This document shows positions 6,364 through 34,013 of a DNA stretch of 43,004 nucleotides, one piece after another. This DNA is from an uncultured Nitrososphaerales archaeon (GTDB taxonomy: Archaea > Thermoproteota > Nitrososphaeria > Nitrososphaerales > Nitrososphaeraceae): the NCBI GenBank assembly GCA_963709405.1, contig CAVPXM010000040.1, positions 1-43,004 of the forward strand, in the 5' to 3' direction. The translations under genes were made by a program, and so were the position numbers. The notes beneath the pieces were generated by a model. That model was not told where the DNA came from. It did not search any database and saw only the letters and a program-made list of their open reading frames with translations. The first letter of the stretch is position 1. The number at the start of each line of letters is the position of its first letter.

Positions 6364-7012
6364 TACAAACCATATTATGTTCGTAGAAACTTAAACAAAA
6401 TAACATCAGTTCTTTTCTGTCGAGGCCTCACAGACAACAAACTAAGAAGTAAACATTACTATCTGTTTTTGATTATTTTTGATTACGTAATTTTTCTTCT
6501 ATATCTGTTACTAGGTAATTAGTTGGTATAAAGTGGTTTATATCAAATTAAAGCATTGCTGCTGAAAACTTGAGTCATTGAGCAAACCAAATTTGGGCTC
6601 GAGCCCAATGGCGACGGAAGTATCTCCACATATTTGATTGTGTAATATTCTATTAATAAATCCATGGTGTAATACCAAAGGTTTGTTTAAACTCGGCTAC
6701 AAATACTGCCATCGGTGGTAGTCGCAAAGCAAACACTTGTTGCAATAGGATAACCCAACAATCGTATACAGATATTCTGGGAGAATATAATATTTTTGCA
6801 ATATTCTATATAATTATATAAAATATGGGTTAACTAAAGTGGGACATTTTTTCTTAAGAATCCTCTCTAGATTAAATAATGACTAGGTTATTCGCGGGTG
6901 TTAGAAGGTACAAGGTTCAATTCTATAGATAAGATCTTGAAATCGTACCAAACTTTAATTTCTATACTAATCTATAACTACTCCACCTATCTTTGATTAA
7001 ATGTTGTACTTT

Positions 7013-7759
7013 TTAACAACTAGTTATCTTTCGGAATTTACAACTTCTTTCTCTATAGATCCATCTCTTATGTAAATAGATCTGTCTGTTCTTGCCAAGA
7101 TCAGGATTGTGTGTTACCATAATTATCGTCCTTCTAAATTTATTTGAAAGCATTGTAAGTAATCTAAATACGTCTTCTCCAGTTTTTGTATCCAAATTAC
7201 CTGTTGGCTCATCAGCAAGAATTATTTTTGGATTATTCATCAGTGCCCTTGCTATAGCTACTCTTTGCTGTTGACCGCCACTCAAATTAATTGGTTTGTA
7301 TCTAGCCTTGTCTAGCATTCCTAGGAAACGCAATAATTTTAATGCGCGCCTTTTTCTGTCACTATCAGTCATACCACCTGTGATGCCAGGAAATTCTACG
7401 TTTTTTAGTACAGTACTTCTATTAATCAAATTATAAGATTGAAAGATAAAGCCTATTGTGTCATTTCTCAAGGTCGAGAGTTGAGAATCATTTAGCGAAA
7501 ATATATCAAGTCCATTAATGAATACTTTACCCGAATTTGGTCTATCTAACGCTCCTATCATATTAAGTAATGTGCTTTTTCCGCTGCCTGAAGGACCGAT
7601 AATGGAGACTAACTCACCTTTACCTGCTGAGAAGCTAACATTTCTTAGAGATATTACACTTCCCATCGAAGAAGTATAGATCTTGGTTAGGTTCTCCACT
7701 CTTAGAGTTTCAGGCGTGTAATCTAAGGTTATATTTTTCTTAAAATCGATATCAGACAT
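7013..7759 (-). CDS. ABC transporter ATP-binding protein (LolD/MacB/SalX type), frameshift near the 3' end
   Basis: GPSGSGKST, LSGGQQQR, LADEPTGNLD, MVTH. The expected tail (TDRSIYIRDGSIEKEVV*) is in another frame after about 7095. Confidence 0.92.
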   Translation of the reverse strand: MSDIDFKKNITLDYTPETLRVENLTKIYTSSMGSVISLRNVSFSAGKGELVSIIGPSGSGKSTLLNMIGALDRPNSGKVFINGLDIFSLNDSQLSTLRNDTIGFIFQSYNLINRSTVLKNVEFPGITGGMTDSDRKRRALKLLRFLGMLDKARYKPINLSGGQQQRVAIARALMNNPKIILADEPTGNLDTKTGEDVFRLLTMLSNKFRRTIIMVTHNPDLGKNRQIYLHKRWIYRERSCKFRKITSC

Positions 7760-7809
7760 TTTTTAGCATTAGATAGTAGGTATTAGTGATCATTATTGCC
7801 CAGATAAAA

Positions 7810-8402
7810 TTAAACTACGGCTAATCTCCCACAGAATCCCATTACTGCTCCGAAGGCTAGGTGCAAAGCTAAAGATCCATATATTATGGTGTTTGAGAGC
7901 TTTAGAAGGTGATTTGCTAATGAGTAGACTGCACTATTGGGACCTTGAGTGTTTACAATATTCTGAAGGTCGGGTTGGATGACCAAAGCATTTATTGGTA
8001 TGAAAAGAACCCTCCGGACAATAATTCCCGCGAGTATGCCAGTACCTAAACCTTTGGGTACAGAAGTAATGTGTAATTTCTTCACATTGTTGGAAATAGA
8101 ACTATATATTATTCCAATGATTGCAGCAGTTACCATGTAAAGGAAAAATCCCGCATCCATAGCATAAACCGAACTTGTGTCAAAAGCTAGTCCAATCATT
8201 TGATAGAATGTACCTGGTGGAAGGTGTGGTCAGAATCAATTGCCAAAAATATTCCAAATATAGTCCAGGCTGCAACTATGCCGGCAATCAGTCCTGAAGG
8301 TCGTTTCCAACTTGTCGTCGACTTAACAACTTGGTAGAATCGGCTTAGAATTGAATTCATGTTAATTGTACATACATACACAGTTATAATATTTAGATTC
8401 AT
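7810..8402 (-). CDS. Multi-pass membrane protein split by a frameshift (ORFs 8196..8402 and 7810..8199)
   Basis: Overlapping hydrophobic ORFs directly upstream of the ABC ATPase on the same strand. Confidence 0.6.
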
Positions 8403-8928
8403 CCTGTCATAATCATATTGATGATCAATGTTTCCTATGATAGCATAAGATTATTACTGAATATAATGAATTCTATTATATATTTTGTATTTGCTATTGG
8501 ATTGATGATCCCTATACTACACCCTATTACACATCATATCGAAGTATTTCATCTAAAAAAGGATACGTGAGCTAAGATAAGCAATTGGAGACAGCCAAAT
8601 CACGTGTACTAATAGCACATGCATAATGAATGCAAATAGCTGATACATATTACATATTTTTAGGGTTTAGTGCACGAACAATCTGTCTGTGTTCTCGTAT
8701 CTGGATTTTTACTATCAAGGATGGTTATTTTAACATCCCAGTGATTTTAAGAGGATTAAAGAACGGAACGCTCGATTACTGATATAGTGTCTATCATTCA
8801 GACTAGTAACCCGGTTTATGAGAATCAGACCAAATATGCTATGACCTACTGAATAAGACAGAAGTAGATTAAGTCGTACCATATTTTGAATGCTTAATAC
8901 ATTATGAACTCACATGTTCTGCTATTAA

Positions 8929-8944
8929 TAACCTATCCGAAAAG
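8929..8944 (+). repeat. Solitary IS5-type terminal motif
   Basis: TAA|TAACCTATCCGAAAAG versus TAA|GAACCTATCCGAGAG at 9169-9186: shared AACCTATCCGA and the same preceding TAA. Confidence 0.6.
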
Positions 8945-8952
8945 TAGTTGAG

Positions 8953-9171
8953 GTTGTAATTTGACTAATATGGGATTGAAACAATGACTAGGCGGTGTAT
9001 CATCGTCTCCGCCTAGATGGTTGTAATTTGACTAATATAGGATTGAAACACCCCTGACGATCTCCTTAGTAACGTCAAATCTGTGCAGTTGTAATTTGAC
9101 TAATATAGGATTGAAACATCATGAAAGAACTAATGTTAGATATCGAGGGTGAACCGTTGTAATTTGACTAA
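8953..9171 (+). CRISPR. CRISPR mini-array: 3 full repeats, 1 truncated repeat, 3 spacers
   Basis: Repeat GTTGTAATTTGACTAATATAGGATTGAAAC (30 bp) at 8953-8982 (one A>G), 9020-9049 and 9088-9117; partial copy at 9156-9171. Unique spacers of 37, 38 and 38 bp. The 3' ATTGAAAC end is typical of Cas6-processed class 1 repeats. Confidence 0.95.
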
Positions 9172-9995
9172 GAACCTATCCGAGAGTTCCTGCTCTTCTG
9201 TAAGTGATCCAAGCACAAGTAAAATGTAACATCGCAATATGGTTCTCTACCTATTTCTCCCATCTAATTAACAAACGTCTAAACCGGTTCATCCAAGAAT
9301 GAGTCCTTTCAAAGACGCATCGTCTAGCTCTATATTTAGGTAATTTTTCTCTTTTTATGTTGCTTGTTTCTTCTCCTCTTAATCGGATGTGAATTGTATA
9401 ACCATACTCTTCTTCTAGTATTTCGTATACTTCAGGAAAGTCATAACCCTTGTCAAGGCACATGTGCTGCTTTGATCTGATTGTTGGTTCAGGTCTATAG
9501 ATTACTACTATACTCTGAAGTGTTGCTTTACTCATTTTCATATCATCTCTGTCTGTTAGCACCATCTACGTATACACCAATAGGAACTCCTTTACCATCT
9601 ACCACCAATATACTACGCTTTGTACCTGATTTACTTCTGTCTGTCTGTGTGAGGGATTTGGTCCTGTACTTTTTTCCCCAAGAGGTACTTTTGTAATAAC
9701 ACCACCATCCATAGCCTGCCATTTCCAATCTATTCTATTATTTTAATCATATACTGACAATCCATCGATCCACATGCGTTTGAATACACCTTCTTTCCTC
9801 CACTCTTGGAATCTATCTATCATGTACTGTACTTAAAGTGTTAAGACTTCTTGGTAGAGCATTCCATTGACATCCAGTTCTTAAGATGTAGAAAATAGCA
9901 CTCATGGCCGTCCTGTCATTCATTCTTGGACGACCAGTCTTTTTTCTATTCCAATGTATTGATGATGGTGACGGTAGCAATGCAATGATTCTGTC
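9172..9995 (-). mobile_element. IS5-family element, degenerate, left end missing
   Basis: Fragments GRPRMNDRTAMSAIFYILRTGCQWNALP, GTKRSILVVDGKGVPIG, LDKGYD, FERTHSWMNRFRRLLIRWEK*. The final stop (9176-9178) lies within the terminal repeat GAACCTATCCGA. Several frameshifts and stops. Confidence 0.9.
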
Positions 9996-10015
9996 TGCCC
10001 CTTACAATATCAGGT

Positions 10016-10145
10016 ATGCAGTACGATGAACCAAAAATTAGTAGATACTATTCAATATTACTCAATACAATGGCGACAATAGCACATAATTTTGGGGCAA
10101 AAATAATCAACAATGCAGGAGATGGGTTGATATATTATTTTCCAT
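10016..10145 (+). pseudogene. Class III adenylate/guanylate cyclase fragment
   Basis: YYSILLNTMATIAHNFGAKIINNAGDGLIYYFP resembles the cyclase GD motif region; both ends are absent. Confidence 0.6.
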
Positions 10146-10159
10146 TTTCGTCTGTTATG

Positions 10160-10915
10160 CTGGTAAAGTTGACCCACTATTGCTTATTAGCGGTAGTGGA
10201 CTTGTCATGGATGCATGGGAGCCTTCTATTTTAAAAGATCTATCCACAACACACAGTAATTGTATTTGATAACCGCGGAGTCGGAAATACGACATCTGGA
10301 ATCAAACCATTTTCAATTCAGCAATTTGCAGATGATACAGCAGCTTTGCTAGATGCTTTAAAAGTACAAAAAGCAGATGTTCTTGGATTTTCTATGGGTT
10401 CGTTTATAGCTCAAGAGCTTGCGCTCTCAAATCCTGAAAAAGTTAACAAGCTTATACTTTATGGGGCAACATGTGGTGGTAAGGACGGTATACCGCAGAA
10501 CCCAGAAGTTGTAAGAATTTTATCTGATTTTGTAAACAACCAAGTGCAAAATATAGATAAAATCCTGTCCGTCACGTTTCCGCCTGAATGGCTTAAATCT
10601 CATCCAAATGTAAGCCTTCCTCAATCTAAAGAAATTATTAGCACTGATACCTTAAAGCAACAGTTCCATGTTGTAGAAGATTGGTTTGCGGCCAATTGGA
10701 GTGGTATATGTTTTCAATTGTCAAAAATATCTGTACCCACATTAGTCATAACTGGAACTGAAGACGTTTCTGTACCCGCGGCTAATTCATTAATTATAAC
10801 GCAAAAAATACCAGGAGCGTGGCTTGTGCAGATAAATGGAGCTGGACATGGACTAATGTATCAGTATCCAAAACAATTCACCGAAATTGTAAAGACCTTT
10901 TTGGAAAATAGTTGA
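10160..10915 (+). pseudogene. Alpha/beta hydrolase, 5'-truncated and frameshifted
   Basis: PLLLISGSG..DAWEP, a frameshift near 10250, then VFDNRGVG, GFSMG nucleophile elbow, GTEDVSVP, GAGHG. Confidence 0.85.
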
Positions 10916-11030
10916 TCTGCCACGGAGTAGTATAGATCGGAGTATGGAATAGTTTAGAACGTTTGATCAAAAATTAGCTTCTGATCAGACAGCTCCCAGG
11001 TCATCTGCTTTTATCCGAACAGGCTATTCG

Positions 11031-11551
11031 CATAGGAAACGTAGCTGTCACTCCATATTTTTCTGGGGGGATCAGAGGAGATAGAAAATGCAGTAGGATC
11101 GTTAATCAACAAGGCCAAAAAAGCGAGAATCATGGCCATGCTGATCAGTTACTCCGGAATTCTCCAAGCTTTGAGCAAATTCAAACCGGAGAACAAAGAC
11201 ATCGAAGACGTACTCGATCCCCATGAGATGAAACAGGTAATGAATCCACCTCGAGGCAAGTCGAAAATCCCTGCTGCATTGTTCTGGTTTGCCAGAGAAG
11301 ATAAGCGATTCGTTGCAGCTCTCTCCCATGCATACAGCGAATATGACAACAATGATTTCATGCACAATAAAGTAATGATCATAGATGACAGGATCGTTAT
11401 TACTGGCAGCTATAACTTCTCGGGAAACGCTGAAAGCAATGATGAGAACATGTTGATTCTAGAATCGGGCGCGGTTGCTGCTTACACAGCATATTTTGAC
11501 GTCCTTTTTGAACAGTACCAAAAACATGATGCCCCGTTGCCTCCTAAGTAG
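11031..11551 (+). CDS. Phospholipase D / Nuc-like HKD-domain protein; 5' part frameshifted in a G-run
   Basis: MHNKVMIIDD..TGSYNFS..NDEN. The upstream VTPYFS(G)..EIENAVGSLINKAKK is joined through a G7 tract at about 11064-11070. Confidence 0.8.
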
Positions 11552-11722
11552 TGGCATGTAAATTGCTTTTAGACTTAATGGCTACCCTGTAATGCGTGAA
11601 ATAAATTAATTAAACTGGCCCAGACTCTGAAAAAAGGACATGTGGGTAGTTAATGTAACGAACGAACACCAGAAAATTTCAGAATCAATCTCTTTATAAA
11701 CTAATATAACGTAGGAAAGCTG

Positions 11723-12154
11723 ATGCTCGTTCAGGTTCAAGAACAGAAACAGAAAGTAAAACTTTCACAAATACTGAAAAATGCCACGGAAGAACAATGT
11801 TTTGGACACTTTATGAAAATTTCCGAAATTACGGACAGAGATGAAAATTATCAAACCACATCAGCAACAAAATCTATGGTCAAGGTATGTGTTAACGGCT
11901 TGTTAATGTCAAAGGCTGGAATTGGAGATGAATCATCAACGACCTTATCTGTATACGAGTACGTAGCTGATGATGAAGATATTTTGCAAGCATACAGAAC
12001 TTTAGGAATTGATCCATATTATAGAATTAAATGCAATAAATGCAATCTGCTTGGCGATGGATATCATCTTTCCCGTGTCCTTGAACATATGAATGACTAT
12101 CATCGGGCTTCATTTAAAGAAATAGGATCATACCTTGAAACATTAGGACTTTAA
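11723..12154 (+). CDS. Hypothetical protein with putative C2H2-like zinc site
   Basis: CNKC..HMNDYH; 143-aa ORF with an upstream TTTATAAA. Confidence 0.65.
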   Translation: MLVQVQEQKQKVKLSQILKNATEEQCFGHFMKISEITDRDENYQTTSATKSMVKVCVNGLLMSKAGIGDESSTTLSVYEYVADDEDILQAYRTLGIDPYYRIKCNKCNLLGDGYHLSRVLEHMNDYHRASFKEIGSYLETLGL

Positions 12155-12607
12155 ATAAGCAGTAGCAATCAGAGGATCTACCGCTAATAAAAAAATGAAA
12201 TCCCGAGCACCAAGTATTTTTGGACAGTTTTATTAACAAGAAAATTTTACCATGCTTTCAGGTATTATGGATACTTAATCGACATGTCATTAGTTAGAAG
12301 TAATGATTACGAGCAGAAGGCATATTAACTTTCATAGATAGGCCATTGCAACGATCGTGAGCAGCTTGCATCAATGGTGCAATTGAACGAATAATTGAGT
12401 GTGTTGTTAGAAGGTGAGCTCTAACCAACCTTGAGCGTCTTTCGATGGTAAGAAGATATTAGCTTCCTGAAAATTGTATGCAAGTCTTAGCTTCGTACGC
12501 AATCTAGTACTAAATAATGATCTATTATTAGTCATATTTACTATTCTTGTTTTTCATATTGTATTGATTTGTGCCGGAGATAGTTATCATTAAAAATTTG
12601 AATAGCA

Positions 12608-32962: not shown

Positions 32963-34013
32963 AGATCTCTTGCGTAATTAGCAGTTATGATCTATTAATG
33001 CTGCCTATTTTGACTGTATTCTTAGATTGAAATCCTGTTAGACTGCATCACTCTGAAGTTCAGTATACCGGATGCAATATCAGATATGTTATTGTACCTT
33101 CTTAGTTTGTTTCTGAACTTAGTACCCATTATTCCAAACTTCTTGATCTTGCATATGGTGTGCTCTACTATGATCCTGAGTCTTGAGTGATTCTTGTTGT
33201 ATCTCATATCGTCATTTGAAAGCAAGGTATTCTTTTTCTTTCTAATGGGAAGTACAGACTTTACTGTGGGAAAGTCCTTTTCGATACCAAGATAACCAAG
33301 ATCAACTATGTTGTCAACTTGTGATGGAGTTAATAGGATGATTGTGTTTGTAAATGTCATAATCATGTTTTCTTCCATTACTGTGACCTGTCTTATGCAG
33401 GATCAAACCTTCAGTATTAACCATCAATTGTGTCTTGACAGTATGTTTCCTCTTTCTACCTGAATAGTAACTCTTTCTCTTTCTCTTGTTCTTAGGTCTT
33501 GGAATTTCCTGTTCTGTAGAGTCTATGAAAGCCTTGAATCCAGGGAAGTACTGTTCAACTTCATCTATAGTTCTTAATCTCTTAGTACGTTTGTATATCT
33601 TCTTTGGCAATGGAATACACTCCTTTAGCAAAGATTCTAGGATACTCAAATCTCTAAATACATTGCTCTGGTCAAGATCAAATAGAAATCCCGATAATGC
33701 ATATGTAATGTACAATCGATAATAAATAAACCAAAAGCATTAGAAGTCTTTCTCTTGGTTTCAGTTTAAACGGTCTACCGGCACCAACATCTCTTTTCCT
33801 CTTCCTTTTAGAAAGACGTCTTCTTTCATATTCCTCATATTTCGATCCTATCTCACTGCTTATTTGATCAAATTCTGGTACAGTTAGTCCAGTAAGTGAC
33901 CTGAATAACAAAGGCTTTTTGCATAATCTTCTATATGACATCAAAGAGATATCAGATAAATATCATATATGACGTCGAATATAGCTGTAAGCTTCTAATT
34001 ACGCAAGAGATCT
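32963..34013 (-). mobile_element. IS5-family (ISL2-like) element with intact ends and frameshifted transposase
   Basis: Perfect 19-bp terminal inverted repeats AGATCTCTTGCGTAATTAG / CTAATTACGCAAGAGATCT, with AAT on both sides (32960-62 and 34014-16). Transposase fragments FRSLTGLT, IDSTEQ, YYSGRKRKHTVK, DLGYLG, RIIVEHTI at 33022-33944. Confidence 0.93.

Follow-up and report, generated by a model that had tools for sequence, protein, structure and literature searches.

We describe here a follow-up analysis of a 43,004-nt stretch of DNA (the window) from an uncultured Nitrososphaerales archaeon (GenBank assembly GCA_963709405.1, contig CAVPXM010000040.1, positions 1 to 43,004), in which a short CRISPR array abuts an insertion sequence (IS) of the IS5 family. 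The segment from 8926 to 10034 probably stems from a non-autonomous composite transposon that was moved in trans, of which it is a degraded copy; the transposon would combine an IS end, a CRISPR mini-array and an IS. An earlier reading, made from the window letters alone (hereafter the sequence-only reading), took the array for a lone orphan; it is instead one of 15 dispersed copies in the source genome, which have spacers in common. The features of the segment are as follows.

8926-8928, plus strand: TAA target triplet, the outer (left) boundary of the element
8929-8952, plus strand: L, a 24-nt copy of the IS5-family element's left inverted repeat (IRL), with the outer tip leftward, recognised in the alignment of IS copies
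8953-8982, plus strand: CRISPR-type repeat 1, 30 nt, GTTGTAATTTGACTAATATRGGATTGAAAC, with the 3' end ATTGAAAC
8983-9019, plus strand: spacer module B, 37 nt, with the hairpin CTAGGCGG-loop-CCGCCTAG
9020-9049, plus strand: repeat 2, full 30 nt
9050-9087, plus strand: spacer module C, 38 nt
9088-9117, plus strand: repeat 3, full 30 nt
9118-9155, plus strand: spacer module E, 38 nt
9156-9171, plus strand: truncated terminal repeat, 16 nt, GTTGTAATTTGAC plus TAA; the TAA doubles as the IS target triplet
9172-10034, minus strand: remnant of a subfamily-2 IS5-family element (IS positions 988 to 119), from alignment and Pfam

The window array has the geometry of a CRISPR array, with repeats within the usual 23-50 nt, spacers of similar length and regular spacing; the period is 67 and 68 nt from start to start, both in the sequence itself and by a repeat finder. 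The three spacers and the truncated fourth repeat of the sequence-only reading stand where it had placed them, and its statement that the window has no cas gene also holds: a Pfam scan of 33 window open reading frames (ORFs), namely 30 of at least 100 amino acids and three shorter ones, run in batches of 15 and 18, revealed no cas family. No stable fold is predicted for the repeat, and its matches to Rfam CRISPR-DR families are all below threshold.

The source assembly (G000, of which the window is contig C40; other contigs are likewise denoted by C and a number) is a short-read assembly from metagenomic data, 4.83 Mb in 100 contigs, 91% complete, with 3.7% contamination and 37% G+C. It includes the archaeal amoA gene, and the host is a soil ammonia-oxidising archaeon. 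With up to three mismatches allowed, G000 has 36 occurrences of the window repeat and none of the reversed control pattern, so the repeat is more abundant than expected by chance. With up to seven mismatches there are 42 matches in 16 clusters, which resolve into 15 mini-arrays of the window repeat, each with 1-4 full copies, and one different array on C46. A k-mer periodicity scan detected in G000 no CRISPR array types other than those built of the mini-array and C46 repeats, the other candidates inspected being tandem repeats. Eleven of the arrays in G000 end in the same truncation of the terminal repeat.

The spacers of the mini-arrays are drawn from a small set of modules, A to F, and recombinants of these, which are reused across loci in varying order: B-C-E in the window, A-B-F on C50 and C97, A-B-B-F on C30, and B-D-E at C21:283350. 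In BLAST comparisons with G000, all six modules are confined to mini-arrays. Each of the three window spacers recurs at 2-11 other loci of the genome, and the uniqueness of spacers expected of a CRISPR array is therefore missing. Module C is seen elsewhere in G000 only at C63:192434 (36/38) and C63:258349 (34/38), and module E also at C21:92571, C21:283514, C55:151307 and C63:86505, with 94-97% identity. The hairpin module B has 12 copies, all within mini-arrays (window 8983-9019, C21:283384, C30:63790, C30:63857, C49:18111, C50:68614, C55:151456, C59:10960, C63:38192, C63:192364, C63:258412 and C97:2868). Its 8-bp stems are identical in all 12, and its 13-nt loop comes in 10 variants, with a per-site pairwise difference of up to 0.7, far above that of the neighbouring sequence, for a cause that is unexplained; the window copy folds with -19.4 kcal/mol (z -2.84). 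Additional loop variants of module B appear on metagenome contigs. Copies differ pairwise by 0.084 in the repeats, 0.098 in module A and 0.045 in module D, and the IS parts by 2-7%; thus the repeats and modules A and D diverge about as much as the IS parts, with no sign of selection.

The IS was defined by alignment of 13 G000 copies with their flanks. It is 942-988 bp long, both ends having tips of the form GA(A/G)CC(T/C)AT(C/G)CGA, and full copies are bordered by T(A/T)A on either side; it has the DDE transposase, terminal inverted repeats and short target duplication of the IS5 family, the window copy being without one of the ends. The family assignment is matched by NCBIfam NF033580 (IS5 family), which recognises both ORFs of the copy at C25:61400-62340 with E values of 4e-40 and 5e-32. 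In the window remnant, Pfam finds DUF4096 (9813-9980) and DDE_Tnp_1_2 (9251-9565) on the minus strand, in a transposase reading frame that is split into three pieces. The claim that the IS end contains the stop codon of the transposase is true of intact copies only; the broken window frame stops early, at 9251. The transposase-distal end of an IS is by usual convention called the right inverted repeat (IRR), and it is the IRR that adjoins the window array; the IRL end and the first 118 nt of the window IS are missing.

Three subfamilies of this IS differ sharply in their relation to the arrays. Subfamily 1 (942 bp) has eight full copies, none of which adjoins an array. Subfamily 2 (988 bp) has six copies, full on C21, C55 and C97 and truncated on C50, on C30 and in the window, and every one of them adjoins the truncated repeat of an array via its IRR. 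Subfamily 3 consists of the copies at C63:38307 and C59:11078, which share 97.4% identity with each other and 91-94% with subfamily 1; both adjoin the truncated repeat of an array via the IRL. Within subfamily 2, relatedness of the IS tracks the last spacer of the array: the C97 and C50 copies, both beside arrays A-B-F, are 98.2% identical, and the C55, C21 and window copies, all of whose arrays end in spacer E, are about 96% identical. This exclusive linkage and joint phylogeny suggest that array and IS may have moved as one unit. All subfamily-2 copies have at least three frame breaks each, some of which are common to several copies, so the gene was defective before it was copied. Subfamily 1 retains an uninterrupted 282-aa transposase ORF on C58 and an ORF1 plus ORF2 layout in two copies; these copies, which match NF033580, are a plausible source of transposase acting in trans. 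Tips similar to CCTATCCGAAAAGTAG are found at C13:87772, C21:278583, C37:26558, C37:45883, C65:8914, C87:14400 and C96:4384, at the head of elements whose interiors differ and fall into at least three further types, so that these ends are common to several related IS5-family lineages.

The left boundary of the window array is also an IS end. L agrees with the IRL of subfamily-2 copies (C97:3965, C21:91528) at 22-23 of 24 positions, which identifies it as the transposase-proximal end; on the test set by the sequence-only reading, it is an IS end and no ordinary leader. The two terminal motifs noted there in the same orientation are indeed direct copies of the IS5-family tip, TAATAACCTATCCGA (8926-8940) and TAAGAACCTATCCGA (9169-9183), identical at 14 of 15 positions. 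In 11 of the 15 loci, including the diverged copy at C63:86629, L runs directly into the first base of repeat 1, and the triplet outside L is T(A/T)A at nine of these 11, with TAG at C63:86605 and an ambiguous triplet at C63:192330. Since L is an IS end with a target triplet on its outer side, the left boundary of the array was made by transposase; the inner junction of L with repeat 1 arose a single time and has been copied since. Two other origins that had been proposed are unsupported, namely that the array was seeded within the end of an IS and that an IS-derived spacer left a remnant on the leader side: L is the terminal 24 nt of the IS with its tip facing outward and T(A/T)A outside, no spacer matches the IS, and Cas1 and Cas2 were not found in the assembly. 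A promoter-like box, TATTAATA, is present upstream of repeat 1 at 8923-8930, as had been noted; it is composed of local flank, target triplet and IS tip. We dropped its interpretation as a leader promoter because it is missing at the other copies of the array.

The outer ends can be inspected at several loci. Of the subfamily-2 units just one is complete, C55:150266-151581 (1316 bp), and it is bordered by TAA both at L and at the far end of the IS; the complete subfamily-3 unit, C63:38134-39263, likewise has TAA on either outer side. Both thus have the inverted IS ends and single target duplication of a composite transposon. The window copy taken alone does not have both of these ends, its far end being deleted. 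At the IS-free locus C21:283350, TTA stands outside L, and the truncated repeat is followed by GAC-TAT-TTA-GTCAAC, a right junction that is one base off the GAC-TAA-TTA to be expected if a unit had entered CTGAC-TTA-GTCAAC and the inner IS had later left. Similar but ambiguous junctions are seen at C63:192330 (GAC-TAG-C-TTA) and at a loose end in metagenome run X12 (GACTAAG-TTAAAATG). The solo L-array is not a miniature inverted-repeat transposable element, having an IS end at the left only and GTTGTAATTTGAC at the right, and no inverted tip was found within 4 kb of the IS-free array copies. That the IS had entered a full repeat was considered and rejected, for nowhere in G000 does a 3' half-repeat stand beside an IS tip. 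As a separate observation that no model explains, the segment C63:192250-192500 has TTGTAATTTGCCTAGCTTA about 25 nt upstream of L, a near-copy (18/19) of the right junction of the same element, TTGTAATTTGACTAGCTTA.

The multiple copies, the identity of L with an IS end and the linkage of array and IS favour one of the options of the sequence-only reading, namely that the array is IS5 cargo moved via the outer end. The unit would comprise L, a type I-B-like mini-array that ends in the truncated repeat plus TAA, and an IS5-family element with a broken transposase gene, so that L and the far IS end would form the inverted pair. Transposase supplied by intact sister copies of the IS would cut at the outer ends and paste the whole unit into T(A/T)A, with a 3-bp duplication, and recombination between repeats would shuffle, duplicate and delete spacer modules. 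The inner IS, which would retain two ends of its own, may excise and leave a solo L-array behind, and in the window copy a deletion would have taken the outer IS end and made the unit immobile.

Relatives and environmental data reproduce parts of this arrangement. The window stretch is contained in soil and peat metagenome runs of 12 studies, and contigs from three studies (X12, 8300-8959; X5, 8464-8959; X1, 8637-8955) bridge the flank, L and the start of repeat 1, which makes misassembly of the left junction unlikely; other flanks joined to L are also present among the metagenome contigs. For the unit as a whole, no pair of an occupied and an empty site was recovered, the nearest being one loose end in run X1: a contig that matches the window up to 8928 and continues into sequence absent from G000. 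The empty TAA site sought at 8926 therefore has a candidate in a soil metagenome, and none in six genomes of the same genus, where window positions 6500-12500 as query matched only paralogues and IS copies. The exact repeat type occurs in one of 60 relatives, G006, with one different spacer, and a scan of species-representative genomes for the repeat gave 0 matches at first and 1 with a looser pattern. In G006, contig C190 (locus L034) has at 1501-1610 a one-spacer array whose second repeat is cut at GATTGAC-TAG and followed by TAACGTATCCATAA, which resembles the IS tip TAACCTATCCGA; IS ends beside the mini-array repeat may recur in the genus. Contigs of a soil oligo-dT RNA run (X19) cover the array and the IS and not 8501-8902; given a multi-copy array and possible carry-over of DNA, they are uninformative on transcription.

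Several observations weigh against movement as a single unit. L is absent from four of the 15 loci (C13, C21:92572, C50 and C97), and on C50 and C97 a unique flank joins repeat 1 directly; such loci can be accommodated only by later rearrangement or assembly error, and the origin of the junction between L and repeat 1 is unexplained. Units complete at both ends are limited to one of subfamily 2 (C55) and one of subfamily 3 (C63:38134). The outer target triplets agree in all three testable cases (these two and, with a one-base difference, C21:283350), which is weak evidence, as the triplet is nearly invariant and each match has about one chance in two. At one and the same TAA, IS of two lineages are found in opposite orientations, so that at least two independent insertions at one spot are needed, and AC precedes T(A/T)A at nine of 13 IRL tips, which makes GAC-TAA a favoured site. 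Metagenome contig L043 bears a two-spacer array with unique spacers and the same truncated terminal repeat, without L or IS, and the truncation may accordingly predate the link to the IS. One contig of run X5 joins 8527 to 10032, skipping 1504 nt of flank, array and IS; the joint is unexplained and may be another arrangement in a related strain. Much of this would also be expected if the L-array were an independent dispersed repeat, spread for instance by ectopic recombination, and the IS merely preferred the GAC-TAA that the truncated repeat supplies, array and IS then being neighbours and not a unit: the preference at the IRL tips, the two lineages in both orientations, the arrays without L on C50 and C97, and the truncated ends without IS at C21:283552, at C63:192472, on L043 and at the X12 loose end all favour such a hot spot. 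We think it somewhat unlikely, however, since subfamilies 2 and 3 are found solely beside arrays (8/8 copies), as would not be expected of a free-living IS, since the IS phylogeny tracks the last spacer, and since L is itself an IS end with an outside triplet, a boundary made by transposase. The internal repeats, moreover, have been spared: in G000 no IS interrupts any of the 36 full ones, though each contains GAC-TAA.

The state of the assembly is a further concern, as modules of 67 nt or more that are shared between loci could mislead an assembler in a metagenomic assembly of 100 contigs. A rival account would be that one or a few ordinary long arrays were broken by IS insertion and by recombination between IS copies, and that short-read assembly misjoined the pieces. 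No metagenome contig spans the whole array, and the Logan contigs break inside it, so the misassembly that the sequence-only reading allowed for is countered at the left junction and not for the spacer order, which lacks independent confirmation. Nevertheless, 11 distinct unique flanks join an identical junction of L and repeat 1, that of the window being reproduced by three outside assemblies; the copies differ by 2-7% in step with the IS, unlike a collapsed assembly; and fragmentation alone cannot place the same spacer in up to 12 places, which makes this account improbable. Still less credible is an orphan array of the ordinary kind, with spacers acquired on the spot through Cas proteins encoded elsewhere. 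In its favour, repeat length, spacing and the ATTGAAAC end conform to those of CRISPR, C46 has a type I-B effector locus, and relatives have related repeats in long arrays; against this, all three window spacers recur elsewhere, the position of the leader is occupied by an IS end, and Cas1 and Cas2 were not found in the 91% complete assembly. We give equally little credence to the idea that the array is a tandem repeat internal to a transposon that only resembles CRISPR. It could point to spacers that are not unique in the genome, to the hairpin in one of them and to the sub-threshold Rfam matches, but the last 14 nt of the repeat match the cas-linked C46 repeat at 13 positions, in G006 and L043 this repeat stands on either side of unique spacers, and its close relatives form long arrays in the family.

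The genome has a type I-B effector locus with a related repeat at C46:1-7570 (locus L033), which encodes a Cas6 C-terminal domain, followed by a five-repeat array (GTTTAAATCGAACTATTATAGGATTGAAAG) and by cas8b, cas7, cas5 and cas3, and is flanked by the end of an ABC-transporter gene and by genes of unknown family. No cas1, cas2 or cas4 lies beside the effector genes, and in G000 as a whole the Cas1, Cas2 and RAMP profiles have no match, which in a 91% complete assembly does not prove absence. Only the C-terminal domain of Cas6 is recognised (910-1347), and an unassigned 186-aa ORF (420-980) overlaps it in another frame; this cas6 may be frameshifted. Compared over 30 positions, the mini-array and C46 repeats disagree at 7, but 13 of the last 14 nt match. 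A cas locus with exactly the mini-array repeat, which the sequence-only reading would have looked for, was not found, and the C46 repeat is the related one. Matches to the array (E up to 0.05) are present in 42 of 150 genomes of the Nitrososphaeraceae, strongest on the repeat parts of the query, and related repeats form long arrays there; together with the similarity to C46, this places the mini-array repeat in a family used by a Cas system. If transcripts of the repeat were processed, the predicted 8-nt 5' handle would be AUUGAAAC.

No targets of the spacers were found in G000 outside the arrays, in IMG/VR (five spacer cores) or in phage or plasmid records, nor beyond the repeat parts in the 150 family genomes, scans by exact match being liable to miss diverged protospacers. 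In these records the spacers thus showed no match to related mobile elements, which a mini-array directed by one mobile element against its rivals would lead one to expect. Nor is the element a CRISPR-associated transposon: the 33 window ORFs include no Tn7 or Cas family, the only gene of the element is of IS5 type, and the cas genes are on another contig. It is tempting to speculate that the IS5-family element carries the mini-array as working cargo, about 15 copies per genome that would feed the type I-B effector with CRISPR RNAs chosen by the transposon or with decoy repeat RNAs, and that the transposon would in this way programme or blunt immunity, the hairpin spacer B being the functional, diversifying part; we consider such a role unlikely.

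The proposed unit has counterparts among known systems. Composite transposons such as Tn5 and Tn10 consist of two inverted IS ends around a cargo, and here too L and the far IS end bracket a cargo, with a 3-bp target duplication and several copies, only the outer tips of the left arm being required. Unlike in Tn5 and Tn10, the left arm is 24 nt long, the cargo is a CRISPR mini-array and not a protein gene, and the IS is defective and dependent on its sisters. IS elements are also reported to inactivate CRISPR-Cas systems by insertion into cas genes; in both cases IS elements land in CRISPR-Cas loci, but in the present case the internal repeats are uninterrupted, and the array has been multiplied and not destroyed. 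Mini-CRISPR arrays on viruses and mobile elements have reportedly been described by Medvedeva et al. Carriage of mini-CRISPR arrays and of single repeat units by viruses and other mobile elements, such as plasmids, is also covered in a review (PMC11656645), in which the term 'insertion sequence' has 0 occurrences. The likeness is that a mobile element bears an array of 1-4 spacers without cas genes and with repeats resembling those of the host system, and the difference is that the carrier here is an IS, with a repeat that is 7/30 off that of the host, no target found and about 15 copies in one genome. In Thaumarchaeota, integrated elements bear stand-alone arrays with 69-96 spacers (Krupovic et al. 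2019, PMC6563490). They share with the mini-arrays the archaeal lineage, the type I-B repeat class and the placing of cas-less arrays on mobile DNA, but the elements are large, conjugative and still acquiring spacers, whereas the mini-arrays have 1-4 repeats, are static and reside on a 1-kb IS. For Tn7-like transposons, CRISPR arrays serve as targets (Chacon Machado and Peters 2025, PMC11837452). These elements and the CRISPR-associated transposons resemble ours in being physically tied to arrays, which serve as a safe landing place; those of the Tn7 family, however, insert at a fixed place in spacers or are guided by Cas effectors, whereas the present element has an IS5-family DDE transposase and T(A/T)A as target, shows nothing to suggest guidance by RNA, and takes the array along.

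No report of an IS-borne, amplified mini-array was found in the literature searched, a search whose coverage excluded most subscription journals. The usual view is that cas loci, plasmids, viruses or large integrative elements carry CRISPR arrays from place to place and that the arrays grow by adaptation. The array described here appears to multiply within one genome on a 1-kb IS, its spacers copied and not acquired. If true, this would be a new route for making orphan arrays, a warning against taking spacer content as a history of infection, and a natural case in which to ask whether a simple transposon benefits from the guide RNAs or repeat decoys that it carries.

The abrupt end of the IS remnant at 10034 is adjoined by an alpha/beta-hydrolase gene (window 10035-10915), the main ORF of which (10346-10915) aligns with Pfam Abhydrolase_1 from profile position 63 onward. 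The gene thus seems to be frameshifted or to have lost its 5' part, possibly through the same deletion that took the IS end, and it has paralogues elsewhere in G000. A second broken transposase gene, unrelated to the first, lies on the minus strand at window positions 33022-33715, with Pfam DDE_Tnp_4 matched across two overlapping ORFs.

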